In this document: positions 13,062 to 51,472 of the stretch, one piece after another
Layout of the letters: the number at the start of each line of letters is the position of its first letter
Position numbering within the stretch: the first letter of the stretch is position 1
Assembly (NCBI GenBank): GCA_018062205.1
Contig: JAGOSP010000003.1
Coordinates: 17,220 to 81,219, forward strand
Length of the DNA stretch: 64,000 nt
Origin: Candidatus Moraniibacteriota bacterium
GTDB taxonomy: Bacteria; Patescibacteriota; Minisyncoccia; Moranbacterales; UBA1568
Direction: 5' to 3'
Program-made: the position numbers and the translations under genes
Notes under the pieces: model-generated
The model's database searches: none
Seen by the model: only the letters and a program-made list of their open reading frames with translations
What the model was told of the DNA's origin: nothing

Positions 13062-14033
13062 ATGCGTGACTTCTCCAAGGAGTGGAAAACTCTCCGTTAT
13101 GTAACAAAAAATGCTTCTCGCGTGCTTCTTTTTGCCCATTCTCGACCAGACCCAGACACGGTAGGTGCGAACATAGCACTCAAATATTTTCTTGAACAAG
13201 AAGGAAAGAAGGTGGACATAGGCTGCTTTGATCATTTTCCGCCCAATCTCCGCCCTCTTTTTGACGAAAAATTCCTCCATCCCGACCTACTAGATCTTGC
13301 TTCTTATGATGCTGTCATCGCCTGCGACAGTGTCGACCGGGGTTTTGACAAGATAGCACCGCATCTTCAGCCAGAAACGGTCACCGTGCTTATTGATCAT
13401 CATCCAGACATCCTCCTTTCGGGAGACATTGTCATTATTGATCCTGAATATTCATCAAGCTCCGAACTGATCTATCTTTTCCTTCAATCGGCTGGCATAA
13501 CTCTAACGAAACCAGTAGCAACGGCGCTTCTTCTCGGACTTATGTTTGATACTGGAGCTTTTCAGCACGCCAATGTTACCGCTCAGGTCATGAGTATTGC
13601 TTCAGAACTCATGCAGCGTGGCGCTCCAGCCAATAGAATTGCCGAACTTATCTTTTCTAAAAAGAAAGTGGCCGCTCTGAAGCTCTGGGGGAAGGCCTTC
13701 GAGCGAGCGCGTCTTCATCCACAGAGTGGGCTTCTCACGACAGTAATTACTCAGCAAGACGTTGATGAATGTGAGGCACTTATTGATGATATCTATCAAG
13801 TCACTACTATCCTCAGCGCTGTGCCGGAAGCAAAGTATGTTTTGGTGCTTTCTGAACGAGAGAGTGGAATGGTACGTGGAAGTCTTCGCTCACTTGAACA
13901 TCACGCTATTGATGTATCAGCGATTGCAAAGACTCTGGGTGGTGGTGGGCACAAACTAGCTAGTGGATTTGAAGTTCCGGGAAAAATTATCGAAACGGAT
14001 TATGGCTGGCAAATAGTCCCAGAGTTTCATTAA
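13062..14033 (+). CDS. nrnA: DHH/DHHA1 phosphoesterase, NrnA-like (oligoribonuclease / pAp phosphatase)
   Basis: AHSRPDPDTVGA (DHH motif I), LIDHHPD (DHH), GGGGHKLASG (DHHA1 GGGH). Confidence 0.75.
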   Translation: MRDFSKEWKTLRYVTKNASRVLLFAHSRPDPDTVGANIALKYFLEQEGKKVDIGCFDHFPPNLRPLFDEKFLHPDLLDLASYDAVIACDSVDRGFDKIAPHLQPETVTVLIDHHPDILLSGDIVIIDPEYSSSSELIYLFLQSAGITLTKPVATALLLGLMFDTGAFQHANVTAQVMSIASELMQRGAPANRIAELIFSKKKVAALKLWGKAFERARLHPQSGLLTTVITQQDVDECEALIDDIYQVTTILSAVPEAKYVLVLSERESGMVRGSLRSLEHHAIDVSAIAKTLGGGGHKLASGFEVPGKIIETDYGWQIVPEFH

Positions 14034-24350: not shown

Positions 24351-25502
24351 ATGCGTTCAATACATTCTTCTTTCACTCTATTTTTTCTTGTTTTTTCATT
24401 TGGCTTCCTTGTGCTTACTTCAGATGTTCAAGCTGAGGTCTTTAGCCCCGATGAATGCAAGGCGGTGCTTGGGACATGCAAAAGATCTATTTTTTGGAGC
24501 AACTGTTCAGGAGAGGAAACTGAAGTGGCTAAATGCAATGTAAATGCCGAAAGCTGTTGTAAGATTATAAAAGATGCGGGCGGTACGGTTCTTTCCGGGG
24601 CAAGCGCTTTAACTCAATTCCAAAGAGATTTAGATGGGGGATATTATACCGCCGCCCTTGAAACGGCCCCTGTAAAATCTGGCGCTGGCATGGTCGCCTC
24701 TGGGCCGCCACCTTCATCTACCAGTGGCACTGGAGCAGGCAACTTCAACTACACATTGCTCGAAAAAATACCCGGGCAAGAGAGCGCCACGGGGAGCCTC
24801 CCTGGTTATCTGCAGGCGATTCTCAATGCCACTATGATGATTATTGTTCTCTCAGCTGTCTTTATGATTTCAGTTGGTGGTTTTCTTTATCTCACAAGCG
24901 CTGGAAATACTTCTCGAGCCGGGCAAGCCAAAAATATCATCACTGATGCCATTTTTGGTCTCATCCTTGCACTTGTTGCCTATCTCGTTCTCTATATTAT
25001 CAACCCAGATCTTATCACTCTTCGCCTTGATTCACTTTCGACTACTTCTGCTCCAAGCGGTACCTCTCCAACAGGCGCTCCTATACCAACTTCTGAGGAC
25101 GTCTACGCGCACGCAGATGCTGTTGCAGTACTCAGCGCAAAAGGGATTAACGTGACTAGCTCTGGAAGTTGTAGCGATCCAAAAAGAAAAGAGTGTACCA
25201 GCCTCGATGGCATCCCGAAAAGTACTATCGCCAACGTTATCGCCCTCAAAGAAAAATCTGGCTGCTCTTTCAATATAACCGGAGGGACCGAAACTGGGCA
25301 TGCGACTCATGGGGCAGGAAGATCCATTGTTGATGTCAGCGAGGCACCTTGTCTTGAAAATGTCTTTCGTAATCAAAAACCCTCCCTCGGTAGTCAATAC
25401 AATATTCAATCTATTTGCGCCGACTCTACTAGTCGTGAAGCAGCCTACGGGTGTAGTTATGTCGAACCTCAACCTCATTTTCATATTCAATTCACCACCT
25501 AG
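24351..25502 (+). CDS. secreted/membrane protein: Cys-rich N-domain, pilin-like hydrophobic hairpin domain, C-terminal M15-type (VanY-like) zinc peptidase domain
   Basis: Signal peptide, then an 8-Cys segment. A two-helix hydrophobic domain follows (NFNYTLLEKIPG...MMIIVLSAVFMISVGGFLYLTSAGN...ITDAIFGLILALVAYLVLYIINP), resembling T4SS/CPR-type pilin domains. The C-terminus carries GHATHGAGRSIVDV (SxHxxGxAxD-like) and EPQPHFHIQF (HxH), as in LAS/M15 D,D-peptidases. Confidence 0.5.
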   Translation: MRSIHSSFTLFFLVFSFGFLVLTSDVQAEVFSPDECKAVLGTCKRSIFWSNCSGEETEVAKCNVNAESCCKIIKDAGGTVLSGASALTQFQRDLDGGYYTAALETAPVKSGAGMVASGPPPSSTSGTGAGNFNYTLLEKIPGQESATGSLPGYLQAILNATMMIIVLSAVFMISVGGFLYLTSAGNTSRAGQAKNIITDAIFGLILALVAYLVLYIINPDLITLRLDSLSTTSAPSGTSPTGAPIPTSEDVYAHADAVAVLSAKGINVTSSGSCSDPKRKECTSLDGIPKSTIANVIALKEKSGCSFNITGGTETGHATHGAGRSIVDVSEAPCLENVFRNQKPSLGSQYNIQSICADSTSREAAYGCSYVEPQPHFHIQFTT

Positions 25503-34108: not shown

Positions 34109-35743
34109 TTGACAACTCTATCAGTCTTTCAAAAAAAAATCAAGTCTCCTGTTATCCACTATAAACTCCCATTAATCCACATCATCAAAGACCGTGTTCT
34201 CTGGAAAAGGAAAAAACTACGTGCTATAATAGCATTTACTCACAAAAATACCCTCGTCAAACCAGTCGCAAGCGCTTCTTATACTATAAAATGTGCATTT
34301 GTGGATAATTCGAATCTCATCCCGTTTGAAGCGCTTTGGAAAGCTGTCCTTGATCAGATTGAACTTTCAATCTCTCGAGCAAATTTTGTCACTTGGTTTA
34401 AAAACACTTCTATTCTCTCTTTAGAAAACGGGAAAGTTATTATTGGCGTCCCAAATGGTTTTGCAAAAGAGTGGCTAGAAAATAAATACAATCACTACCT
34501 TCTTCGTGCCTTCCACTCCGTACAAAGTGAGGTTTCTGAAATTCATTGCCAAATTACCCCTGATAAACCAATCACACCCGCACTCCCTCGCGAACCCATA
34601 CGTTCTCTTGATATGATACAACGGCCGTCTCTTGATGGTTTTTTGCGAAAAAAACTCACTGGATCACCTTCTGTTCGGCCACAACTTGAGTTTTCGCAAG
34701 AAAAGCCACACAACAATAATCTTAATACACGCTACCTTTTTGAAAATTTCATCGTAGCTGAAAATAATGAGCTCGCAAAAGCAGCCTGTTATGCTGTTTC
34801 TCAAAATCTTGGAACTACTTACAACCCACTTTTTATTTACGGAGGGGTTGGACTCGGAAAAACACACCTTCTTCAATCAATCGGTAATGAAATATCCCAA
34901 CATTTTCCGGAAAAGAAAATAAAATATATCACATCCGAGCGCTTTACTACCGAACTTATCGACTCAATAAAAACTCAAAAAACCGACCAATTTAAGGAAT
35001 ATTACCAACAAATGGATCTTCTTATCATTGATGATGTCCAATTTCTTTCTGGAAAAGAAAAAACCCAAATAGAATTCTTTCATATTTTTAATGCTCTCTA
35101 TCAGTTGAACAAACAAATTGTTATTTCAAGCGATCGCCCACCAAAGGCGATCGCCACCCTTGAGGATCGTCTTCGGTCTCGATTTGAGGGAGGTATGATT
35201 ACCGATATTAGTCGCCCAAACCTCGAAACCCGTATCGCTATTCTTGAAGCAAAGGCTCATGAGCGAAATATTTCTATTGATGAACATTCAATACGGTTTA
35301 TTGCTGAACATATCACCCAAAATATCCGAGAGCTCGAAGGTGCCCTCAATAGAATTCATGCTTTTTCTGAATTCCACAAAATACCCACTACCCTTGCTGT
35401 AACAACAAGAGTATTAGAGCAATTAATAGAAAATAATAGAAAAAGTATTAAATCTGAAGATATATTTCGTGTCATAATTGATTACTATGGCGTATCCGAA
35501 GAAAGCCTCATTAAAAAAGGACGTAAAAAAGAAATTGTTCATTCTCGACAAATGACAATGTATCTTCTTCGAAATGAGCTCCAAATGTCACTTGCTTCTA
35601 TTGGTACAGCTTTAGGAGGAAGAGATCACACAACAGTGCTTCATGCTTGTGAAAAAATAGAAAAAGGCCTCCACGAAAACATCCGCCTAAAAGAAGAGCT
35701 CAACACCCTTAAAGAGCGCCTTTATTATGCTACCTGTGGATAA
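34109..35743 (+). CDS. dnaA: chromosomal replication initiator protein DnaA
   Basis: Walker A GGVGLGKTHLL, IIDDVQFL (Walker B), sensor/arginine-finger region, C-terminal DNA-binding domain (SLASIGTALGGRDHTTVLHA). The N-terminus probably starts at in-frame GTG 34301 (…VDNSNLIPFEALWKAVLDQ). Confidence 0.92.
   Translation: MTTLSVFQKKIKSPVIHYKLPLIHIIKDRVLWKRKKLRAIIAFTHKNTLVKPVASASYTIKCAFVDNSNLIPFEALWKAVLDQIELSISRANFVTWFKNTSILSLENGKVIIGVPNGFAKEWLENKYNHYLLRAFHSVQSEVSEIHCQITPDKPITPALPREPIRSLDMIQRPSLDGFLRKKLTGSPSVRPQLEFSQEKPHNNNLNTRYLFENFIVAENNELAKAACYAVSQNLGTTYNPLFIYGGVGLGKTHLLQSIGNEISQHFPEKKIKYITSERFTTELIDSIKTQKTDQFKEYYQQMDLLIIDDVQFLSGKEKTQIEFFHIFNALYQLNKQIVISSDRPPKAIATLEDRLRSRFEGGMITDISRPNLETRIAILEAKAHERNISIDEHSIRFIAEHITQNIRELEGALNRIHAFSEFHKIPTTLAVTTRVLEQLIENNRKSIKSEDIFRVIIDYYGVSEESLIKKGRKKEIVHSRQMTMYLLRNELQMSLASIGTALGGRDHTTVLHACEKIEKGLHENIRLKEELNTLKERLYYATCG
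34150..34182 (+). promoter_or_regulatory. DnaA boxes upstream of dnaA (TTATCCACT, TTAATCCACA)
   Basis: 9-mer matches to TTATCCACA at 34152-34160 and 34172-34181, upstream of the likely GTG start at 34301. Confidence 0.55.
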
Positions 35744-36024
35744 TTATGTATAAACACGCTTTTTACCTGGACATCGCCTCTATAATTCCATTTTATCTGT
35801 GGAAAAAATAGAATACTTTTTATTCACATTCCTCTATGATTAATTATCCTCGTTTTTATCCCACTCAATATTCAAATAAACTAACTCGTATTTCCTTCCA
35901 AAGAAGGAAGAAACAGACTTATCAACTTATCCACACTCCTAATAATAATAAGACTTTTTTTAAAAAATGGATTAATTCTTACTAAAGAAAAATCTCCCTT
36001 AATTCAAATTGTTTAAATATTTCT
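35744..36024. promoter_or_regulatory. candidate oriC (dnaA-dnaN intergenic): DnaA boxes plus AT-rich unwinding element
   Basis: Perfect TTATCCACA at 35927-35935, TGTGGAAAA (reverse TTTTCCACA) at 35798-35806, TTATCCCAC at ~35856-35864. An AT-rich stretch follows at 35936-36020 (AATAATAATAAGACTTTTTTTTAAAAAATGG...). Confidence 0.6.
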
Positions 36025-37155
36025 ATGAAACTTATTTGTACCCAAGAAAATCTTTCCCGATCAATCACTTACCTTGAGCGTATCACAGGGAAACAATCAA
36101 CATTACCTATATTGAGTAATATTCTTATTGAGGCTGAAAATGGGCGATTAAAACTCTCAGCAACTAATCTTGAGATTGGGGTAATTGTTAATATTGGTGC
36201 AAAAATAGAAGAAGAGGGAAAGATAACTATTCCAGCTAAACTTATAGGAAGTTTTATACATAATCTTCCTTCTGGGGATATTTTAAATCTTCAAACGGAA
36301 CAATCATCCCTTGTTATTCAAAGCACACAATATGAGGGGAAAATTAAAGGTATGGATGGAAAGGATTTTCCTATCATCCCTTGTTTTCAGGGCGAAGAAT
36401 ACCCATTTGTTTTTCCAGCTCAGTTTTTTAAAAACGCTCTTTCACAGATACTTTTTTGTGTAAGTCAAAATGAATCGCGAATGGAATTAACAGGGGTGAA
36501 TGTTTCTTTTGAAGAGAAATTCCTTTATTTAGCCGCCACAGATAGTTTTCGATTGGCTGAACAGACGTTTGAGCTTCCTTATGAAACACCGTCTACGCAG
36601 TCATTTATTATTCCAAGTGCAACATGTCAGGAGTTGCTTCGGATTATCACCCAGGAGAGCAAGGAGGTATTTGTAGCAATTGAAGAAAATCAGGCATTTT
36701 TTGAGGTGGATGGAGTAAAGATTGTTTCTCGGCTTATACATGGGAAATATCCTGATTATAAACAAATTATACCCATATCATTTCTTTCAACGTATCAAAT
36801 AAAAAGGGAGGAGCTTGTTCGCGCTGTAAAAATAACCAGCGTACTCTCTTCATATAATGCAGGAGAAATAACAATACGATTTACGGCTGGTTCTTCGGAG
36901 TGTAGTATTGAAGCGGTTTCTCAGGAAGTAGGTCAAAATAAAGCTCGTGTTCGTATTGAAAATCAATCAGGTGAAGATTTAGAACAAATTTTTACTTTTA
37001 ATCCGCGGTATGTTCTCGAGGGTTTAAACGCTTTTAAAGGAGAGTATGTTGTTTTTCATATAAACAATGCAACATCACCGGTAGTGTTGCGAGAAAAAGA
37101 GGGAGAGAAAGAAAAGGCACAATACTTCTATATCATGATGCCGGTACGAAAGTAG
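36025..37155 (+). CDS. dnaN: DNA polymerase III beta subunit (sliding clamp)
   Basis: 376 aa; MKLICTQENLSRSITYLERITG...LSATNLEIG, three-domain clamp size; follows dnaA. Confidence 0.9.
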   Translation: MKLICTQENLSRSITYLERITGKQSTLPILSNILIEAENGRLKLSATNLEIGVIVNIGAKIEEEGKITIPAKLIGSFIHNLPSGDILNLQTEQSSLVIQSTQYEGKIKGMDGKDFPIIPCFQGEEYPFVFPAQFFKNALSQILFCVSQNESRMELTGVNVSFEEKFLYLAATDSFRLAEQTFELPYETPSTQSFIIPSATCQELLRIITQESKEVFVAIEENQAFFEVDGVKIVSRLIHGKYPDYKQIIPISFLSTYQIKREELVRAVKITSVLSSYNAGEITIRFTAGSSECSIEAVSQEVGQNKARVRIENQSGEDLEQIFTFNPRYVLEGLNAFKGEYVVFHINNATSPVVLREKEGEKEKAQYFYIMMPVRK

Positions 37156-40189: not shown

Positions 40190-41143
40190 TTAGAGCTCTT
40201 TGCTAGAAGCGAGTTTTTCTAGACCATCCAGAAGACCATCGATAAAGGCTGGATACTGAGACATGTTTTCTTGAGGAAATCCGATTTGGTCATTGAGTTC
40301 AAAGACAAAGGGGGTATTTTGATTCTGAATGCCAAAATCGATAGAATAGAGAGGAAAGTTGAAAGTGGTATCGACAAGAGATTGAATTTTTTGAGCAGTA
40401 TTTTTAATGAAGTGAGGAATATTTTCTAATCGTATTTCCTGAAGAGAGCCTCCTTGCGCGACATTAGCTAACAAGGAGCCTTCTTTGGGGGTTCTTACGT
40501 GAGCCAGAGTCATTTTTCCGTTGACGATAATGATACGGAGATCATGATGACCCATGACTATATTCGGGATTCCTTTCGCGGTGTCAACAAATTCTTGGAG
40601 CACATATTCCATTTTTGGATTGAGCTCGGTTTGTTTCAGATTTGTCGGAAAATCAATAATAATTCCTTTCCCACACATACCGCGAGTCGGTTTTAAAACG
40701 ACGCGCGTATTTATTGGAAAGTTTTTAAGAGAGGATTGTAGCTCTGCTTGATTTCGAATAAGGACACTTTTTGGCATGAAGTCAGAAAGAAGTTCTTGCG
40801 TGGCATATTTATCATTACAAAGAAGCTTGAATGCTCGGCAGTTGAGCGTTTTTTGGCTCATTTGAGGAGAGGGAAAACTTGTCCCACCACTTCGATCATA
40901 AATAGCATCGGCGATAATCGGTTGATCGTGATATTGGAAAGATATTCCATCATACAGATAAGTATGAGCAAAAACATAATTACCAAGGCAATTTTCTTTC
41001 CCGCTTGCTAAGTGCATTTGGTAACCGCGGGCGATTCCTTTTTGAAATAAGCGGTGATAAACAGCGCGTTTCTTTCCAAAAGATGCGAAGGGATCTTGAT
41101 TGAGCATGAGTTTATGATAATAGATGACTATTTTTTTTCGCAT
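40190..41143 (-). CDS. ATP-grasp family protein (third ATP-grasp of the cluster)
   Basis: 317 aa; VVLKPTRGMCGKGIII (ATP-grasp Lys/Gly-rich loop), LQEFV, downstream acidic-loop region; start overlaps upstream gene by 16 bp. Confidence 0.55.
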   Translation of the reverse strand: MRKKIVIYYHKLMLNQDPFASFGKKRAVYHRLFQKGIARGYQMHLASGKENCLGNYVFAHTYLYDGISFQYHDQPIIADAIYDRSGGTSFPSPQMSQKTLNCRAFKLLCNDKYATQELLSDFMPKSVLIRNQAELQSSLKNFPINTRVVLKPTRGMCGKGIIIDFPTNLKQTELNPKMEYVLQEFVDTAKGIPNIVMGHHDLRIIIVNGKMTLAHVRTPKEGSLLANVAQGGSLQEIRLENIPHFIKNTAQKIQSLVDTTFNFPLYSIDFGIQNQNTPFVFELNDQIGFPQENMSQYPAFIDGLLDGLEKLASSKEL

Positions 41144-41997
41144 AGTATAAGGTAATTTGAAAGAGATCTTATTTCTGGAGAAATGATTTCGTCGAGTGTG
41201 AATGCTGGGCAGCTATTAACCTCAAAAACTATCGGAATACCAGAGCTATTTTCGATGACGTCGATGCCAGCTATTTGGATATTTGTTACCCGCGCGGCTA
41301 ATTCGGCGGTATCCTTTACTGTAGACGGGACTTGCTGAAGAGAGATGAATTCTTCTTTTGCCCCGAGGTGAACATTGTTTCGAAACTCCTCATCCTGAGA
41401 GCGAATTTTTTTCTCCGCGACAGCACTCTTATCTCCCATGACAAGAATACGATATTCAAAGGTATTTGGAATAAATTCCTGAAGAAATATTTCTCTTCCT
41501 ACTTTGGTAAGAGACCGCTCTTGTAGAATTTGCTGGAGTGATTCAATTGTTTTTGCAAGAAAAACACCGGATCCTTGAGAGGTATTCGTTTCTTTTACCA
41601 CTAGAGGCAGTCCGAGGTAAGCAACAGCATTCTTAATCTGTTTTTTTGTGTAGGTGGCCGAGACATACGTTTTTGGGATAGAGACATGATTGAGCGCCAG
41701 ATGAAACATTTGTAATATTTTTGCGACATCGGAGGAATCTTTCGTGTGAGTATGAAATCGATCAATAAAAAAAATATTATTTTTTATTGAAAGATGAGCA
41801 AGCATATGAGCGAGCCCTCGATACTTTCCGACCTTCCTCGGGTAAACCGTCGTCCACTTTTGAAGCGGAACGCCGGCTATATTCATTCGGACATCTCCTT
41901 TTTGGATAAAAACCTCAATTTCTTCAAAGTTCGATACGGAAAAGTCAAGAGATTTTTTATCGAGATGATTCTTAAGAAGGAGTAAAAATGTTTTCAT
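41128..41997 (-). CDS. RimK-like ATP-grasp ligase (alpha-L-glutamate ligase family)
   Basis: LVVKETNTSQGSGVFL, FLQEFIP...EYRILVMGDK, NVHLGA, IAGIDVI, VFEVNSCPAF: the RimK motif set in order. The track ORF starts at 42039; Met at 41997 (MKTFLLL) is likely. Confidence 0.7.
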   Translation of the reverse strand: MKTFLLLLKNHLDKKSLDFSVSNFEEIEVFIQKGDVRMNIAGVPLQKWTTVYPRKVGKYRGLAHMLAHLSIKNNIFFIDRFHTHTKDSSDVAKILQMFHLALNHVSIPKTYVSATYTKKQIKNAVAYLGLPLVVKETNTSQGSGVFLAKTIESLQQILQERSLTKVGREIFLQEFIPNTFEYRILVMGDKSAVAEKKIRSQDEEFRNNVHLGAKEEFISLQQVPSTVKDTAELAARVTNIQIAGIDVIENSSGIPIVFEVNSCPAFTLDEIISPEIRSLSNYLILCEKK

Positions 41998-42050
41998 TTT
42001 ACTTCCAATTTGTTTTTTGCTGGTTAGGATGAGAAGCATAGTTTTGATGA

Positions 42051-43445
42051 TTATTTATTCGTATCAATAAGAAATTTTGCAAGATTTTTTCGTCCAATAA
42101 TAATTGGGTAGCCAAGACGGGATCTGTCAATAACTGAAATTTTTGCGGGAAATTGAGTGGTATCCATAATGATTTCGATTTGAATCATAGGCCGGTAAGA
42201 AAAACCATGAGAAGAAGCAACTTTAGTTGTATCGGCGAGGTCCGGAATTCCTAAAAAGAGATTTTCTCGTTCTTCTTTGGAGAGCTCTTTAATGACATCG
42301 CGATCACCTATGCGATTTTGAAATTCATCGAGTACGGCTTCGAATCCAAGTTCTTTGGCAAGTTCGGTGTCGATAGCGGTGGAGTCAGCACCAGTATCGA
42401 TTTTGGCCTCGACTTCAATTTCCCTTCCATTTTTTCCGATGAGTGTTACTTTCTCGATGCAGCCAACAACTCTTCGCCCAGAGATTTCCTCAATTTCTTC
42501 TTCAATCTCTCCACCAAAAAGGTTGCGTCCGAGGCGCACGCCGCGTTCGGTGGTTTTGATATTGACGCCGCGTACGCGATCGAGTCGTTCTTTTAGCCCA
42601 GCAAAATTTGCGAGCTGGATGGAAAGACCGGGCCTGGCATTGAGTTCAAGGATGACAGGCCCTTGATCGCGGTCAATGGCGATATCAGCACCCAGAAAAC
42701 CGAGCGAGGAGATCGACTGTGCTTCAACAGCCATCGTGAGAATTTGTTTCCAGTAGGGGATTTTGATTCCCGAAAGAGGAAGACGTGTTCCTGGAACAGA
42801 CTCGATGATTTGTCCTTTCCCTATGATAGCTGAAGTGGTGGTACCCGTAGCGAGGTCGATACCAACGCCGATAGCACCTTGCTGGAGATTGGCTTTACCA
42901 TCGGAAGCACGAGTGGGGAGACGAAGCATCGCCATAACGGGGATACGGTTGAAAACAATAACGCGAATGTCGGGGATGCCTTTGTAGCTGTAGGGCTTGA
43001 AAAGTTTTAAGAGCTTGAGACGTTCTTCAAAGAAAGCAATGTCTGGAGTATTGGACAAAGAGAAAGACCCATCGAGAATGTTTTCGATATGCGTTTTCAG
43101 ATCATCAATAGTGACAAGACTCCCGTTCGCCTTGATCCATGCATCAGGGCGATTTTTTTTACGGGCATAGACGACGAGTATCCCTTCACCACCAAATCCG
43201 CGATTTGGTTTGAGAGCAAAGCTTGCTGGGAGCGCGGTCCAGTCAAAATTTTCAAGCTCTTCTCGCGAACGGATTTTTCCGATAAGAGCGGAGACAGGAA
43301 GTTTGGCCCGAATAAGCGTATGCTTGCAAAGTAGTTTTTGATCGGCGATTTTCATACCGCGACGACGGTTAAATGGGCGCACAAAATCAAGATTTCGGGC
43401 GTTCATTCCAAGAAGCTTCCGGCTATTTTTCCAGTATTCAAACAT
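42051..43445 (-). CDS. fusion protein: N-terminal ATP-grasp (alpha-L-glutamate-ligase-related, LGMNARN start) + C-terminal retropepsin-like putative protease (DUF785/'Zn_protease'-type)
   Basis: N-terminus KLLGMNARNLDFVRPFNRR...DQKLLCKHTL...FALKPNRGFGGEGILVV (ATP-grasp). C-terminal ~150 aa carries IEVEAKIDTGADSTAID...ISVIDRSRLGYPIIIGRKNL (aspartyl DTGA motif). Confidence 0.65.
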   Translation of the reverse strand: MFEYWKNSRKLLGMNARNLDFVRPFNRRRGMKIADQKLLCKHTLIRAKLPVSALIGKIRSREELENFDWTALPASFALKPNRGFGGEGILVVYARKKNRPDAWIKANGSLVTIDDLKTHIENILDGSFSLSNTPDIAFFEERLKLLKLFKPYSYKGIPDIRVIVFNRIPVMAMLRLPTRASDGKANLQQGAIGVGIDLATGTTTSAIIGKGQIIESVPGTRLPLSGIKIPYWKQILTMAVEAQSISSLGFLGADIAIDRDQGPVILELNARPGLSIQLANFAGLKERLDRVRGVNIKTTERGVRLGRNLFGGEIEEEIEEISGRRVVGCIEKVTLIGKNGREIEVEAKIDTGADSTAIDTELAKELGFEAVLDEFQNRIGDRDVIKELSKEERENLFLGIPDLADTTKVASSHGFSYRPMIQIEIIMDTTQFPAKISVIDRSRLGYPIIIGRKNLAKFLIDTNK

Positions 43446-43609
43446 ATGTTTTGTTCAGATGCACCTGAAGTACGTCTGGTTGAGAATATTTTGAAGAGTC
43501 TAAAAGATGCTTTCCAAGAGACAGAATGGACTTTTTCTTTGCTGTATGTTCGGAAACATGGGGCATCAGAAAAAGTCCATTCTGTCTCTTGATTGAGGGC
43601 CAATCGAGA

Positions 43610-44311
43610 TTAGAGATGTTTGAAGACTTGGCGGAAACGCCAGTATTCCGAGAGACGAAGTCCAGACCATTTCCCCAGTGTGATATTGATGATGAAGGTG
43701 AGTACTATAATCCACAGCGGGTAGGTCAAAAGAAGATCCGTCACAAAAGTAGACTTGATAAGAAAGTACCCAACCGTAGAAATGATGAGCGTTTCTGCAG
43801 CGAGGATGAGCGCAATACGTGTACCTTTCTCAATTTGAGTGGAGACAAATTTCTCGGCGAGAGTAATCATAATCAGAAGCGGAAAGACGGAAGCGCCAGC
43901 AAAACCGGTGCGATTGTTGTGCCCTCCAATAAGAAGCAGGAGGAGTATAGCGAGAGAAATAATGGAAAGAGTAATGGCGACGCGCGGGAGATAGAGAAGG
44001 CGGAATCGCTTGAGACCGAAGCGCGAAAGCATGCCGACGATAATAATGGAAACAAAAACAGCGACGCCATATTTCAGCTCACCCATAGCGAAGAGGGCGA
44101 ACGTGATAATAGAAGGTGTATAAATACCGAAGGCTTTAATCCCAATAACTTGACGGAAAATGGCGACGAGAGTTGCAATGAGAGGAAGCATCAGAAGAAG
44201 AGTGACCGTGAGAAGGGGGACTCCTTCGGAAGCAAAATATTGTACAAGTGGATGATAATTCATAGCGCCATGATGAAAAAAATAAACCTCGAAATAACAC
44301 GAAATTTTCAA
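43610..44311 (-). CDS. 7-transmembrane protein (7TM partner of ATP-grasp/RimK-associated systems)
   Basis: 233 aa, ~7 hydrophobic helices, no soluble domain; located at the head of the ATP-grasp operon on the same strand. Confidence 0.55.
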   Translation of the reverse strand: MKISCYFEVYFFHHGAMNYHPLVQYFASEGVPLLTVTLLLMLPLIATLVAIFRQVIGIKAFGIYTPSIITFALFAMGELKYGVAVFVSIIIVGMLSRFGLKRFRLLYLPRVAITLSIISLAILLLLLIGGHNNRTGFAGASVFPLLIMITLAEKFVSTQIEKGTRIALILAAETLIISTVGYFLIKSTFVTDLLLTYPLWIIVLTFIINITLGKWSGLRLSEYWRFRQVFKHL

Positions 44312-46792: not shown

Positions 46793-47797
46793 TCAAAAGA
46801 GGTAAGCACTATCGGGAGGGATAAGTCCGAGGTGTTTGTAGCCATCAGGAGTGACGACGCGGCCACGGGGGGTACGGGCGATGAAGCCAAGTTGGATAAG
46901 ATAGGGTTCATATACATCTTCAATTGTTTGTTCTTCTTCGCCAATGACAGAGGCAACGGCACGGATGCCAGCGGGGCCACCGCGGAACTTCTCGATAATT
47001 GCGCGGAGCATGTGGCGATCGGTGGGCTCAAGGCCAAGTGGGTCGATTTCAAAGAGAGCGAGTGCCTCTTTGGCTGAGACTGCGTCAATTTTATTTTCAC
47101 GATGGACTTGGGCATAGTCTCGAACCCGTTTCAGTATACGGTTAGCAACTCGTGGTGTTTGGCGGCTTGAGTGAGCAATAATCTCAGCACCAGCATCATT
47201 GAGTTCGACACCAAGAATACGAGCAGAGCGAAGAACGATGCGTTTGATTTCTGCCGGAGTGTAAAATTCTAAACGATGAGTGGAGCCAAAGCGATTGCGG
47301 AGCGGATTGGAAAGCGAACCGAGCTTGGTGGTCGCGCCAATGAGGGTAAATTTGGGGAGATCAAGTTGAATCGTGCGTGCCGAAGGGCCTTTGCCAATAA
47401 TGATGTCGAGCTTGTAGTCCTCCATAGCCGGATAGAGCACCTCCTCGATGGATTTGTTGAGACGATGGATTTCGTCTATAAACAACACGTCACCGGGCTC
47501 AAGATTGGTGAGAATAGAGCCGAGGTCACCGACTTTTTCAATCGCTGGACCAGAGGTAATGCGAATATTTACCCCCATTTCTTTTGCGATAATATGGGAG
47601 AGAGTTGTTTTGCCGAGGCCAGCCGATCCGTAGAGAAGAACGTGTTCGATATTTTCCCCACGATGTTTAGCTGCTTCGATGAAGATATGAAGGTTTCGTT
47701 TGATTTTTTCTTGGCCAACATAATCAGCGAATGCCTGTGGGCGCAGGGTGTTGTCGAAAATTTCTTCTTCAGGGAGGGATTGTTCTGTGGTAAGCAT
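46793..47797 (-). CDS. ruvB: Holliday junction branch migration ATPase RuvB
   Basis: Walker [11 protein letters not shown], Walker [12 protein letters not shown], sensor motifs, 334 aa. Confidence 0.92.
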
Positions 47798-48029
47798 AAA
47801 AAAAGAGGATTCGTAGACTGATGGTTTACTTGCAGGGAGAGTGATATGTAGCGGTTAAAACGAAAGAGGGGTCTTTGGAAGAAGTGTGGATAGTTTTGGC
47901 TTCAATAAAAGGAAAAGAATGCTCTTCCTGCTACAGAATACCACGACTTGACAAGAAATCAAAGCTATGCTAACATAAAAAGTCGTTGTGCTGTGAGGCT
48001 CTTCGGCACAGTCCTGTAGTTTTGTTTTT

Positions 48030-48350
48030 ACAAAAGAAAGATCACTTGATCTGTAGACAATCGGAGGTCTCTATCTTTGCCTCTGATCTCGGGAACTTTT
48101 TGTCCCGCACCTATTTGGGATCGGTTTTCCTCTTTGGAAGAGGAAAATCTTTTTGTGTGAACTCTAAAATGGGTTCATATCTCAAAGAGGCGCGGGATTT
48201 GCCCAGATCGGGTAGTGTGGTTTCGGCTGCGCTATTCCTCGACACTGTTCCTTTCCTCTCGCTCCCATGTGAGAGGCCTGTCTACAGATCAAGATATCTT
48301 TCTTCAAAATAAATCTCGTCTCGCATAAAGTGAGGCGTTTTTTGTTTTTT
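48030..48350 (+). ncRNA. candidate structured non-coding element (unassigned family)
   Basis: GC-richer intergenic segment. A 15-nt perfect long-range pairing joins CTTGATCTGTAGACA (48045-48059) with TGTCTACAGATCAAG (48279-48293). Internal features are a 10-bp perfect hairpin TTTTCCTCTT-TGG-AAGAGGAAAA (48137-48159) followed by TCTTTTT, a further hairpin at 47992-48020, and a T-rich 3' end (48340-48350). Confidence 0.3.
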
Positions 48351-48412: not shown

Positions 48413-51400
48413 TTAGATCTCGGTGACTCGTTTGACTTCTTCAAATGAAGTATGGCCCTCAAGTACAGCCAAAATTCCATCTTGTGTCATGGTGATCATC
48501 CCGAGTTTGATAGCGCGTTCTTCAATCTCATGTACGAGAGCACCTCTTCCAATAAGCTCCTGAATCTCAGTCTCCACAGGAAGGGCTTCGGTAAGAGTTA
48601 TTCGTCCAATGTATCCTGTACCATTACAAGATGGGCATCCGGTTGCGCGCCAAATTGTTCGAGAGCTTGGAATATCAATACCAGCAGCCGGTGAAATGGA
48701 CTGAACGACTAATTCGATAAGAGCAAGCTCTTCGGCGGCGGGAGTCGATTCTTGTTTGCAATGAGTACAGAGTTGGCGAACGAGTCTTTGTGCCATAAAG
48801 AGATTGCTTGCATTAGCAAGATCATCCGGCGAGGTATTCATTTTGAGTAAACGTGAAACCGTTCCGGCTGCGGAATTAGCATGGAGCGTGGAAAGAACAA
48901 GGTGCCCGGTTGAGGCAGCTTGAATGGCCGCTTCAGCGGTTTCGTTGTCACGGATTTCACCAATCATAATAATATCTGGATTTTGGCGCATCAATGACCG
49001 AAGAGCGGTAGCGAATGTGTAGCCAGCTTCCTCGTTGGTTTGTGTTTGGAGAAGGCCAGCTATTTGATATTCGATCGGGTCTTCAACGGTGATGATTTTA
49101 ATTTCTGGTTTGTTGAGACGAGCGAGAACACTATACAGGGTGGTTGTTTTTCCAGATCCAGTTGGGCCAGTATTGAGTATCATGCCGTATGGTTTTTCGA
49201 TAGCCACAAGGAGCTTATCGAGACTTTGTTGGCGGATATGGAGCGATGTGAGATCGAGTTTTGTGACAGACTGGTTGAGAAGTCTCATGACGACTGTTTC
49301 GCCGAAGCCACCAAGAATGATAGAGAGACGAATGTCCACCTTATTTCCGGTAATATTTTCATTTTCTTTTTCCAAATTGACAGAGAACCGGCTATCAGTA
49401 ATACCGGCAGCCTCTCCAGATTTGAGACCACCAAGAAGTTTAATCTCACCAATAAAACTAGGGTATTCATTGAGAGGAAATGAGGCAACGGTTTGAAGTA
49501 TGCCATCAATCCGGAAGCGGACTTCGAATGTGGCTTCGTTTGGCTCGATATGAATGTCTCCGGCCTTCATGATAATAGCAGCTGCAAATAGAGTAGAGAG
49601 TCGCAAATGAGAATCTTGTTTTTCAGCGAATTCCGCGAAACTTTGAAGTGAAATTAAAGACTGTTTTGTTTCTGCGAAGAGGGCTTCCGTGATGAGTGAG
49701 GCGCGAGAAAGCGAACTTGGCATGAGCTTGGCATAGATGTTTTGGAGAATCTCAGTTTGGTCGGCAACTCTCCAGACCTCATCAAGAGTGGTAATACCCT
49801 CGAGCGCCTTGAGAATACCATCTTGAGTCATGGTGATCATGCCGTTTTCGAGAGCGACTTTGAAAATTTCTTCTTCGCTCCCCATATTGCTGATGATTTC
49901 TGAAATCTCAGGAGTTATAGTGAGCACCTCAAAAATACCGATTCGTCCTTTATATCCTGTCATGTGACAATGCTGGCAACCTTTTATCTGCCAAAGCCCC
50001 TCGATATTTTTTGGAAGAGAAACCTTTGCTTTTGGTGAAATAATAGAAATGAGTCGGGTAATAGAGCTGAATGTTTCTTTGGCAGGCACGTAGGATACGC
50101 GACAGTGCGTGCAGAGTTTCCGAACAAGACGCTGGGCGATGATAATGTTTATGGCCGAAGTAATAAGCGAGGGCTTGACACTGAGCTCAACGAGTCGTGG
50201 TACTGCAGCTGCGGCAGAGTTGGCATGGATAGTCGAAAAGAGAAGATGCCCCGTGAGGGCAGCATTAATAGCAATGTCTGCTGTTTCGTCATCTCGAATC
50301 TCACCGACTAATACGATATCTGGGTCTTGACGAACAATAGCGCGGAGGGCAGTCGCAAAGGTGTAGCTTCGATCCTTAGCAACTTCGGTCTGGACTATCC
50401 CTGGGAGTGAGTATTCAATCGGATCTTCGATGGTGATGATTTTTGTGCCGGCATTATTCAGCGTTGAGAGAAGCGTATACAACGTTGTTGTTTTCCCGGA
50501 TCCAGTTGGGCCGGCATTGAGTATCATGCCATGTGGCTTTCGGATTTCTTTGAGGACTTGTTCGTTGGCGAGACCGCGGAGGCCAAGGTCATTCACATTA
50601 ACGATGATGTCATCGCTTGATAACAGTCGCATATTGATACTCTCGCCGTACTTTCCGGGAATCGAGTTTACGCGGATATCAATACGCTTTCCGTCGATAT
50701 CGATGTAAAAATGTCCATCTTGAGCCTCTTTTCTGATATTTAGTCGCATTTTCCCGAGCATTTTGACGCGAGAGAGGAGAAGATGATAGACAGCTTCCGG
50801 TAAATTACCAATGTCCTGAAGAACGCCATCAATACGAAAACGAAGTCGGGTGGTAGCCTCCTCTGTTTCGAAGTGGATGTCGCTGGCATCGAGTTTTTTG
50901 GCTCCAGCTAAGATGATTTCCATAGCACGAGAGGTATTAATCTCACGGCTGTCTTTCAAAGAAAGGAGCTGAGCAAAATCTTGATCAAATTGTTCGAGAT
51001 CTTGACCGTTTAACGAAACACGAACCAGGTCAAGATTATCAATGAACGTACGACGTTTATATTGCTCGATAGCCCGATTGAAAGATGGTTGTGAGACGAC
51101 GTATATCTCACTTTCCCACCCGTGTTGTTCGCTGATTTCAGCGATAAAATCCAGTGTAGCTTGATTGTTTGGATTAAGAATAGCAAAACGTACCTCGAGT
51201 GTTTTTTTGTGGAAAAGAACGACGTTGAGTTCGAGAGATTTCTTTTCTGGTATCAGGAGTACATCTTCAGAACCGATAGGAAAGATATGGAGGTCGATAT
51301 AGGGATAGCCAGAATTTTGAGCAAGCTGTGAGGCAACCTCTTCAATAGAATCATTTCTGAGTTTTTTGAGAATCAGCGCAGTCTTTTCGATTTTTGGGTC

Positions 51401-51472
51401 AATGCTCCCGCCATTTTGGACAACTGTGACCATAATTTTTTTGTTTATGATTACGTTTATTTTAGCGCACAA
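48413..51472 (-). CDS. pilB: type IV pilus/type II secretion ATPase (GspE/PilB family), tandem-duplicated: two complete N2+ATPase modules in one polypeptide
   Basis: 1019 aa. Module 1: Walker A ILNAGPTGSGKTTT, Asp box, Walker B DPDIVLVGEIRD, His box GHLLFSTIHAN, CxxC...CxxC. Module 2: ILNTGPTGSGKTTT, DPDIIMIGEIRD, GHLVLSTLHAN, CTHC...CPSC. Each module is preceded by an N2-like domain (DIHFETEEATTRLRFRIDGVLQ / DIHIEPNEATFEVRFRIDGILQ). A single GSPII_E_N-like domain sits at the N-terminus. Confidence 0.85.
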   Translation of the reverse strand: MCAKINVIINKKIMVTVVQNGGSIDPKIEKTALILKKLRNDSIEEVASQLAQNSGYPYIDLHIFPIGSEDVLLIPEKKSLELNVVLFHKKTLEVRFAILNPNNQATLDFIAEISEQHGWESEIYVVSQPSFNRAIEQYKRRTFIDNLDLVRVSLNGQDLEQFDQDFAQLLSLKDSREINTSRAMEIILAGAKKLDASDIHFETEEATTRLRFRIDGVLQDIGNLPEAVYHLLLSRVKMLGKMRLNIRKEAQDGHFYIDIDGKRIDIRVNSIPGKYGESINMRLLSSDDIIVNVNDLGLRGLANEQVLKEIRKPHGMILNAGPTGSGKTTTLYTLLSTLNNAGTKIITIEDPIEYSLPGIVQTEVAKDRSYTFATALRAIVRQDPDIVLVGEIRDDETADIAINAALTGHLLFSTIHANSAAAAVPRLVELSVKPSLITSAINIIIAQRLVRKLCTHCRVSYVPAKETFSSITRLISIISPKAKVSLPKNIEGLWQIKGCQHCHMTGYKGRIGIFEVLTITPEISEIISNMGSEEEIFKVALENGMITMTQDGILKALEGITTLDEVWRVADQTEILQNIYAKLMPSSLSRASLITEALFAETKQSLISLQSFAEFAEKQDSHLRLSTLFAAAIIMKAGDIHIEPNEATFEVRFRIDGILQTVASFPLNEYPSFIGEIKLLGGLKSGEAAGITDSRFSVNLEKENENITGNKVDIRLSIILGGFGETVVMRLLNQSVTKLDLTSLHIRQQSLDKLLVAIEKPYGMILNTGPTGSGKTTTLYSVLARLNKPEIKIITVEDPIEYQIAGLLQTQTNEEAGYTFATALRSLMRQNPDIIMIGEIRDNETAEAAIQAASTGHLVLSTLHANSAAGTVSRLLKMNTSPDDLANASNLFMAQRLVRQLCTHCKQESTPAAEELALIELVVQSISPAAGIDIPSSRTIWRATGCPSCNGTGYIGRITLTEALPVETEIQELIGRGALVHEIEERAIKLGMITMTQDGILAVLEGHTSFEEVKRVTEI

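Follow-up and report, generated by a model that had tools for sequence, protein, structure and literature searches.

Can two complete motors of the PilB/GspE type be joined in a single polypeptide, and if so, how would such a chain be built into the six-part rings of this family? The question is raised by a gene in a stretch of 64,000 nucleotides (the window) from Candidatus Moraniibacteriota bacterium, an uncultured, ultra-small patescibacterium (GenBank assembly GCA_018062205.1, contig JAGOSP010000003.1, positions 17,220 to 81,219). A first reading of this stretch (the original prediction) had described an open reading frame (ORF) of 1019 amino acids at 48413-51472 that encodes two fused secretion ATPases. 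This ORF is present, with a TTG start, and it lies on the minus strand, which had not been stated. Our analysis shows a rare, old and conserved doubling of a whole PilB-type motor in one chain. We establish its architecture and motif integrity, the selection acting on it, and its age, rarity and distribution.

Two motor modules behind a single N1 domain

Pfam models matched two T2SSE (PF00437) stretches, with 737 bits in total versus a gathering cut-off of 24.9, and a single MshEN/GSPII_E_N domain (PF05157) at residues 42-127 (31.6 bits versus a cut-off of 23.1), in line with the claim that only one N1 domain is present, at the N-terminus. When aligned to each other, the halves were 44% identical over 415 amino acids (E 1e-122). 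Each contains an N2-like domain (N2D) with the motifs R.R.DG and D.R.S, followed by a C-terminal ATPase domain (CTD) with a Walker A motif, an EDPIEY Asp box, a Walker B motif, a TGH..ST.H.N His box and a tetracysteine motif (Table 1). The original prediction had listed the N2-like domain, Walker A, Asp box, Walker B, His box and tetracysteine motif for both halves, along with the strings LYTLLSTLN and LYSVLARLN as a mark of their divergence, and all are found in the protein. It had also asked whether catalytic residues were lost in one half, or whether a stop or frameshift separated the two. Both halves keep the Walker A Lys, the Glu residues of the Asp box and Walker B, and the His box, and no stop or frameshift lies between the halves here.

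The four cysteines of each module (C441/C444/C486/C489 and C889/C892/C933/C936) were invariant in 64 homologues and form putative zinc sites; some relatives have CxC as the first pair of module 2. The hallmark of MshEN domains that bind cyclic di-GMP is a 24-residue motif, RLGxx(L/V/I)(L/V/I)xxG..., and no RLGxx... motif was seen by eye in residues 1-60, for which no formal motif search was made. In the linker between the modules, a conserved helix (..IY..LM...LSR) comes before a hinge around residues 571-580, modeled with low confidence by AlphaFold2 (AF2), and further helices then lead into the second N2D.

Translation most likely begins at the ATG at 51433 and not at the TTG at 51472, because homologues begin at the equivalent methionine, because the near-identical protein P0001 has a public gene call of 1006 amino acids, and because the upstream region contains a terminator-like hairpin and a promoter-like site, the latter overlapping the TTG. 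P0001 was reported at 100% identity in the database search, yet differs by at least one substitution from the window protein in an alignment. All residue numbers of domains and motifs refer to the 1006-residue form.

Table 1. Features of the tandem ATPase gene and its surroundings, in window coordinates unless a locus is named.
Feature	Position	Strand	Details
Tandem PilB/GspE-family ATPase, coding sequence	48413..51433	-	1006 aa (amino acids) plus stop at 48413-48415; ATG start
N1 domain (MshEN/GSPII_E_N)	51053..51310	-	aa 42-127; Pfam and AF2 fold
Module 1 N2D	50579..50923	-	aa 171-285; RLRFRIDG, QDGH, IDIRVNS
Module 1 ATPase domain (CTD)	49760..50578	-	aa 286-558
Module 1 Walker A, GPTGSGKT	50489-50512	-	aa 308
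Module 1 Asp box	50411-50440	-	aa 332-341
Module 1 Walker B, ...GEIRD	50291-50332	-	aa 368-381
Module 1 His box	50219-50254	-	aa 394-405
Module 1 CxxC...CxxC	49967-50113	-	pairs at 441 and 486
Inter-module linker	49598..49759	-	aa 559-612
Module 2 N2D	49235..49597	-	aa 613-733; EVRFRIDG, DSRF, VDIRLSI
Module 2 ATPase domain (CTD)	48416..49234	-	aa 734-1006
Module 2 Walker A, GPTGSGKT	49145-49168	-	aa 756
Module 2 Asp box	49067-49096	-	aa 780-789
Module 2 Walker B, ...GEIRD	48947-48988	-	aa 816-829
Module 2 His box	48875-48910	-	aa 842-853
Module 2 CxxC...CxxC	48626-48769	-	pairs at 889 and 933
Sigma-70-like promoter site, ATPase gene	51486-51459	-	candidate; consensus match only
Terminator-like hairpin, upstream gene	51512-51498	-	consensus match only
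DHH/NrnA-like protein, 383 aa	51544..52695	-	directly upstream; DHH Pfam matches in orthologues
ruvB, downstream neighbor	46793..47797	-	conserved
Structured small-RNA candidate	47948..48346 (core 48043-48295)	+	conserved in the ATPase-ruvB spacer
Promoter of RNA candidate, TTGACA-17-TAACAT	47948-47976	+	conserved; consensus match
Terminator of RNA candidate	48317-48337 and T run	+	terminator-like
Single-module T2SSE ORF directly upstream of ruvB	L059, L066, L071, L074, L079, L080, L083, L084		

On its sequence, the protein is filed in the PilB/GspE subgroup of the PilT/VirB11-like superfamily, without a single equivalog, because all scores with NCBIfam equivalog models were below their cut-offs. 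The N-terminal and C-terminal halves scored 456.2 and 406.3 bits with the PilB model (TIGR02538, cut-off 675.65), 452.1 and 420.8 bits with GspE (TIGR02533, 630.25), 235.9 and 229.9 bits with ComGA (NF041000, 300), and 189.2 and 164 bits with PilT/PilU (TIGR01420, 319.1). Among solved structures compared by sequence, Geobacter PilB (5tsg) matched module 2 with 285 bits, and Thermus PilF and Vibrio GspE matched module 1, while PilT structures reached only about 105-114 bits. An AF2 model of the single chain (mean predicted local distance difference test, pLDDT, 79) contained two PilB-like N2D+CTD units, which matched PilB and PilF chains with template modeling (TM) scores of 0.88-0.91. An AIRNLIRE-type motif is found in neither module; the PilT proteins of Candidate Phyla Radiation (CPR) bacteria carry GEMRD and lack the cysteine pairs, and those of loci L090-L092 have AIRNMIRE or AVRNMIRE. 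The comparison of the halves with PilB and PilT that the original prediction had called for thus places both with PilB/GspE, far above PilT. None of the solved structures retrieved contained two modules in one chain.

PilB of Geobacter metallireducens (5TSG/5TSH/6OLJ) resembles each module in its N2D+ATPase fold (TM 0.88-0.89, 45-46% identity), and shares with the tandem protein the catalytic motifs, the four-cysteine site and an N-terminal N1 domain. The tandem protein differs in having two motors per chain with only one N1, in being encoded outside pilus operons, and in carrying QDGH in module 1 where PilB has QDGR. PilF of Thermus thermophilus (6F8L, 5IT5, 5OIU), to which module 1 aligns over residues 15-554 with a TM score of 0.91, is a PilB-family motor that also has an internal duplication. 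However, it is the N-terminal GSPII domain that is multiplied in PilF, whereas the motor itself is duplicated here. GspE/EpsE (1P9R, 4KSR, 4PHT) likewise has a zinc site, together with a GspL-binding type of N1 domain, and scores with GspE were close to those with PilB. A classical type II secretion system is unlikely, though, as CPR bacteria are reported to lack an outer-membrane secretin (PMC6744442).

Conservation, spread and origin of the doubled gene

More than 115 clusters at 90% identity represented full-length homologues among the best 120 database matches. Except for two shorter proteins and the 1460-residue P0011, the matches were 1003-1022 amino acids long, with 53-91% identity to the query, and their names were of the type 'GspE/PulE family protein' from Moranbacteria, Moraniibacteriota, Patescibacteria or Minisyncoccota. 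When one genome per species was scanned, the tandem gene was found in about 40 GTDB species of Moranbacteria and related Patescibacteria. The gene of about 3 kb occurred at some 41 species-level loci, at which it was intact (36), cut by a contig end (3) or broken within module 2 (2); the junction between the modules was never the break point. The two broken genes (L034:1051-4125 and L049:4448-7776), one with an in-frame stop and one with a frameshift, may represent sequencing errors or pseudogenes. Many TPA_asm records of metagenome-assembled genomes in which the gene block was found (L014, L017, L022-L026 and others) are titled 'uncultured Bdellovibrionales' or 'Gammaproteobacteria' and look mislabeled.

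A search with the C-terminal half against 1.84 billion representatives at 50% identity returned 13,617 matches at E <=1e-30. Among the matches listed, about 13-14 were two-module chains of 980-1050 amino acids, whose motifs were checked, which bears out the earlier description of the architecture as rare. Two-module members named Parcubacteria and Paceibacterota were also found. The tandem form has long been present in public databases, labeled 'general secretory pathway protein E'. The full-text literature searched, including a 2024 review of PilB and a paper on CPR protein families, did not describe PilB/GspE motors that are duplicated or in tandem, nor any natural tandem form of a PilT/VirB11-like motor, which is not proof of novelty.

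In both modules, hardly any variation was seen among 117 tandem homologues in Walker A, EDPIEY, GEIRD, TGH..H.N, R.R.DG or the four cysteines. Mean pairwise identity in this set was lowest in the linker (0.39), followed by the N1 domain (0.42), and was 0.60-0.69 in the modules. In comparisons with close relatives, synonymous divergence (dS) was saturated, and nonsynonymous divergence (dN) was 0.03-0.09 for module 1 and 0.08-0.14 for module 2, a ratio of about 1.6-2.8; wherever the dN/dS ratio omega could be estimated, it was below 0.1 for both. Both modules are therefore under strong purifying selection, with module 2 evolving about twice as fast.

The doubling could in principle have been created by a duplication during assembly, or by a sequencing error that joined two adjacent genes. 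The modules are only 44% identical, however, the same single ORF recurs in assemblies made independently from a wide range of samples and species, and purifying selection extends across the junction, so that the chance of an artefact is negligible. In neighbor-joining (NJ) trees, the N-modules formed one clade (100% bootstrap) and the C-modules another (95%), from which it follows that the duplication predates the radiation of the family. The original prediction of an old duplication, made from the divergence of the halves, is borne out by these separate clades and by the many independent assemblies.

Single-module PilB-like genes of 560-585 amino acids immediately precede ruvB in other Patescibacteria of several classes, among them Harrison-, Adler- and Yanofskybacteria and Paceibacterota. 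Those at L059, L066, L071, L074, L079 and L083 occupy the same position as the tandem gene and are 42-52% identical to module 1, with one module where the tandem protein has two; they are likely unduplicated orthologues. Identity to the single-module relatives was 46.6% for N-modules and 41.9% for C-modules, and 43.8% between N- and C-modules. A further group of PilB-like genes, of about 615 amino acids, is found beside tsaE/tsaD. Most likely, a single-module gene of this ruvB/tsaE-adjacent lineage was duplicated in place. We prefer an asymmetric divergence thereafter, in which module 2 changed faster than the more conservative module 1.

Several candidates for other histories were tried. In a first NJ tree, the N- and C-modules of P0125 and P0129 appeared as sisters, as if duplicated independently; P0125 is also encoded upstream of ruvB, and gene conversion between the modules is the likelier cause of the pairing. 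An apparent unfused two-gene version at L090-L092 turned out to consist of ordinary pilB and pilT pairs. A separate clade of operon-encoded PilBs had only 33% bootstrap, and we do not claim it.

Two proteins with multiple modules stand apart. P0011 (L006:10001-14383, on a 77-kb contig) is a three-module relative of 1460 amino acids with three Walker A sites. Its middle module is a chimera, C-module-like over about the first 240 aligned positions and N-module-like after that, a pattern that unequal crossing-over between two tandem genes would be expected to give. P0135 (L012:10001-13144), one of the two-module chains found, is a separate T2SSE protein from a non-CPR genome, in which the Walker A Lys of module 1 is replaced by Thr. 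It has precomputed T2SSF matches at its N-terminus, and its neighbors encode sulfatases, an ECF sigma factor and BatA/MoxR.

The conserved gene block and other features of the window

The tandem gene belongs to a conserved block consisting of tsaE (on the opposite strand), the 383-residue DHH-like gene, the ATPase gene, a spacer of 400-650 nt and ruvB. Next come a small ORF, the bPH_2 gene, yebC and ruvC, and polA lies close by. This order is kept down to 42-46% protein identity. The DHH-like protein has IDTS in place of the DHH motif and is probably non-catalytic, judging from this substitution; outside the Moranbacteria clade, a hidden Markov model search found this partner only at L069. A canonical DHH-DHHA1 protein is encoded elsewhere in the window, at 13062-14033.

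No other T2SSE ATPase is encoded in the 64-kb window, and no prepilin peptidase was detected among its scanned ORFs or among the gene calls of a near-identical contig. For comparison, a canonical CPR pilus operon contains pilM, pilO, pilB, a response regulator, pilT and pilC, and related CPR lineages carry ordinary pilM-pilO-pilB-pilT-pilC operons. The tandem gene thus represents an "orphan" PilB-like lineage that adjoins ruvB or tsaE and lies outside pilus operons. When a CPR PilT was used as query, the best 120 matches all belonged to other orders, at 75% identity or more, with no Moranbacteria name among them, so that they say little about co-occurrence of pilT with the tandem gene.

Between the ATPase gene and ruvB, the spacer contains a conserved candidate for a structured small RNA. 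It is closed by a stem of about 16 bp with the invariant strands CUGUAGACA and UGUCUACAG and an outer part that shows many compensatory changes; the core of the candidate is conserved, and an insertion is variable. As delimited by the stem, the element measures 115-254 nt and was retrieved from 27 loci (22 distinct sequences), including L004:13098-13236 and L079:1496-1636; at the latter, it lies between a single-module ATPase gene and ruvB. The plus strand of the window is favored as the putative RNA strand, because of the conserved promoter and terminator, the better consensus fold (-36.4 versus -19.9 kcal/mol) and invariant G-U pairs. Resemblance by eye had suggested RNase P, signal recognition particle, 6S or 5S RNA; these identities were dropped, as no Rfam 15 family matched the candidate on either strand at E up to 10. 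In the window as a whole, the only Rfam matches were ten tRNA genes.

Other features of the window were recorded as well. Three ATP-grasp genes (RimK/ATPgrasp_ST-like) and a gene for a seven-transmembrane, transglutaminase-like protein are located at 40190-44311 (minus strand). Their conserved cluster follows ruvC here and at L004, L007 and L010, and looks like a peptide-modification system. At 24351-25502 (plus strand), a 383-residue protein is encoded that weakly matches T4SS_pilin (PF18895, 30 bits) and a model for Mbov_0395-family conjugal pilin-like proteins; next to it lies an ORF of 379 amino acids without a match. The protein may be part of a type IV secretion system of Patescibacteria. 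As dnaA and dnaN are adjacent (34109-37155, plus strand), the window probably spans the region of the chromosomal replication origin.

Proposed ring assembly and role of the doubled motor

For the number of chains per ring, the activity of each module and a part in filament assembly, we infer a model from the relatives of this protein. Rings of the family are composed of six packing units, each formed by the N2D of one subunit and the CTD of the next (N2D(n)+CTD(n+1); PMC6858323). By analogy with these homohexameric rings, a six-module ring made from three two-module chains is plausible, and would be the most economical arrangement. In such a ring, modules 1 and 2 would alternate (ABABAB), the N2D of one module packing on the ATPase domain of the next, and as the two motor units (N2D and ATPase domain) of a chain share one N1, three N1 domains would be present in place of the usual six. 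Both modules most likely bind and hydrolyze ATP, given that all nucleotide-binding and catalytic motifs are kept and that both are strongly constrained. Assembly of a pilus-like filament, with the ring driving a membrane platform protein, is taken as the default role, because the N1 domain and the zinc site of filament-assembly ATPases are retained. Taken as a whole, this reading, with a three-chain ABABAB ring, two active modules, a filament-assembling role and duplication in place, is one that we consider probable, if only just.

Several observations weigh against parts of it. Neither module reaches the NCBIfam equivalog cut-off for PilB, GspE or ComGA. In module 1, residues 238-242 (50708-50722) hold QDGH, in which a His replaces the conserved Arg of the QDGR of PilB, while the corresponding residues 679-683 of module 2 (49385-49399; DSRF) keep the Arg as in ordinary PilBs; the His is near-invariant across the family and constitutes a fixed N2D difference between the modules. 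The genes pilC, pilM/N/O and pilT and pilin genes were not found within 10 kb at any of about 45 loci, nor among the scanned ORFs of the 64-kb window. The N and C clades were not sisters in the NJ trees (1% bootstrap), and a fusion of two older paralogues, instead of duplication in place, would be the less preferred origin. Finally, the structure prediction that had been proposed for the fused protein recovered two PilB-like units, but did not place them confidently relative to each other (predicted TM score, pTM, 0.46), and a construct spanning CTD-1, the linker and N2D-2 modeled poorly (pLDDT 64, pTM 0.38), with 16 sequences only.

The geometry of the proposed ring has consequences for its symmetry. 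All PilB structures show C2 symmetry with the pattern CCOCCO, of period 3, and PilT, FlaI and DotB are also found in the C3 pattern OCOCOC (PMC6858323). An ABABAB ring could be C3 but not C2, because opposite positions (i and i+3) hold different modules. The original prediction that a covalent dimer would hard-wire the C2-symmetric, two-state asymmetry is therefore not supported in this form; on geometric grounds, a covalent dimer would fit a C3 alternation or a ring without exact symmetry. Three-module chains like P0011, two to a ring (ABCABC), would be compatible with C2.

Would the modules of one chain lie in the same ring at all? Stacking is common among tandem P-loop ATPase modules of other families, as in KaiC, p97 and ClpB, and six chains could likewise form a double ring, with a hexamer of first modules coaxial with a hexamer of second modules. 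The linker of about 54 residues with its flexible hinge would permit either topology, and AF2 shows no preferred packing. However, no stacked double ring was seen among the PilT/VirB11-like structures retrieved, the packing of N2D(n) on CTD(n+1) between subunits suits a single plane, and the three-module P0011 would need three stacked rings, whereas chains of two and of three modules both divide six, for which reason one plane is favored. We consider stacking rather unlikely. Within a single ring, the two modules might have divided their labor such that one turns over ATP and the other serves as a nucleotide-binding scaffold, as in F1 alpha3beta3. By analogy, six-site rings of two alternating, diverged paralogous modules are found in F1 alpha3beta3, Pex1/Pex6 and engineered linked ClpX, which are hetero-hexameric or covalently linked ring ATPases from families other than that of the tandem protein. 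The faster divergence of module 2 (1.6- to 2.8-fold in dN) and the QDGH of module 1, where module 2 and other PilBs have Arg, would fit such a division, as would the degenerate motifs in some modules of the more divergent proteins (Walker A Lys to Thr in P0135, ENPIEY, or RxRIDG lost in P0132). Against this, the catalytic motifs are intact in both modules of this protein and its 117 closest relatives, and both modules are strongly constrained, making a catalytic and regulatory pair unlikely. Very unlikely, in turn, is the split into extension and retraction that the original prediction had suggested, in which one module would replace a separate PilT. Bifunctional motors do exist in the wider family, as reported for CpaF (PMC12019362), and it is correct that no pilT is present in the 64-kb window; this absence is uninformative, though, in a window without any other pilus gene. 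Both modules are PilB/GspE-type in score (456 and 406 bits with PilB versus 189 and 164 with PilT), zinc site and motifs, neither resembles the PilTs of CPR bacteria, and related CPR lineages have ordinary operons that include pilT.

The conserved recombination neighborhood makes a DNA-linked role conceivable. Rather than powering a pilus, a PilB-derived ring ATPase could act on DNA, in uptake or processing, together with its neighbors: the DHH-like gene, the ATPase gene, the small RNA, ruvB, yebC, ruvC and the nearby polA are kept together down to 42-46% identity, the superfamily can act on DNA, with a weak match here to the archaeal Holliday-junction ATPase PINA, and a second type IV pilus locus of Saccharibacteria includes recA-recX (PMC12206443). 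Yet the PINA match amounts to 28 bits versus a cut-off of 800, the N1 domain and zinc site are typical of filament-assembly ATPases, conserved order in small CPR genomes may be plain inheritance, and the ATPase gene has promoter-like and terminator-like sites of its own, 400-650 nt from ruvB. We therefore regard a role on DNA in place of a pilus motor as improbable. A broader proposal would combine these threads: covalent dimers (about 1006 amino acids) and the trimer (1460 amino acids) would fix the ring orders ABABAB and ABCABC, and the ruvB-linked lineage may not act in the canonical type IV pilus but in a separate process, for instance DNA uptake that feeds recombination, or nucleotide salvage, together with the DHH-like pseudo-enzyme and the small RNA. 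To this proposal we assign a rather low probability.

If the three-chain ring that we favor is correct, nature has provided a way to find out whether C2 symmetry is obligatory for the cycling of PilB-type motors. Models of ring motors cannot be tested cleanly in rings of six identical subunits. Where a chain contains two or three modules that can be told apart, one type of site could be mutated at a time, and the natural tandem chain would fix the order of the modules and halve the number of partner-contacting N1 domains per ring, so that symmetry, cooperativity between sites and partner stoichiometry would become directly testable. The epibiotic life of Patescibacteria appears to depend on pili and DNA uptake (PMC6744442, PMC12206443), and the tandem gene reveals a widespread PilB-like lineage in these bacteria that lies beside recombination genes and outside pilus operons.

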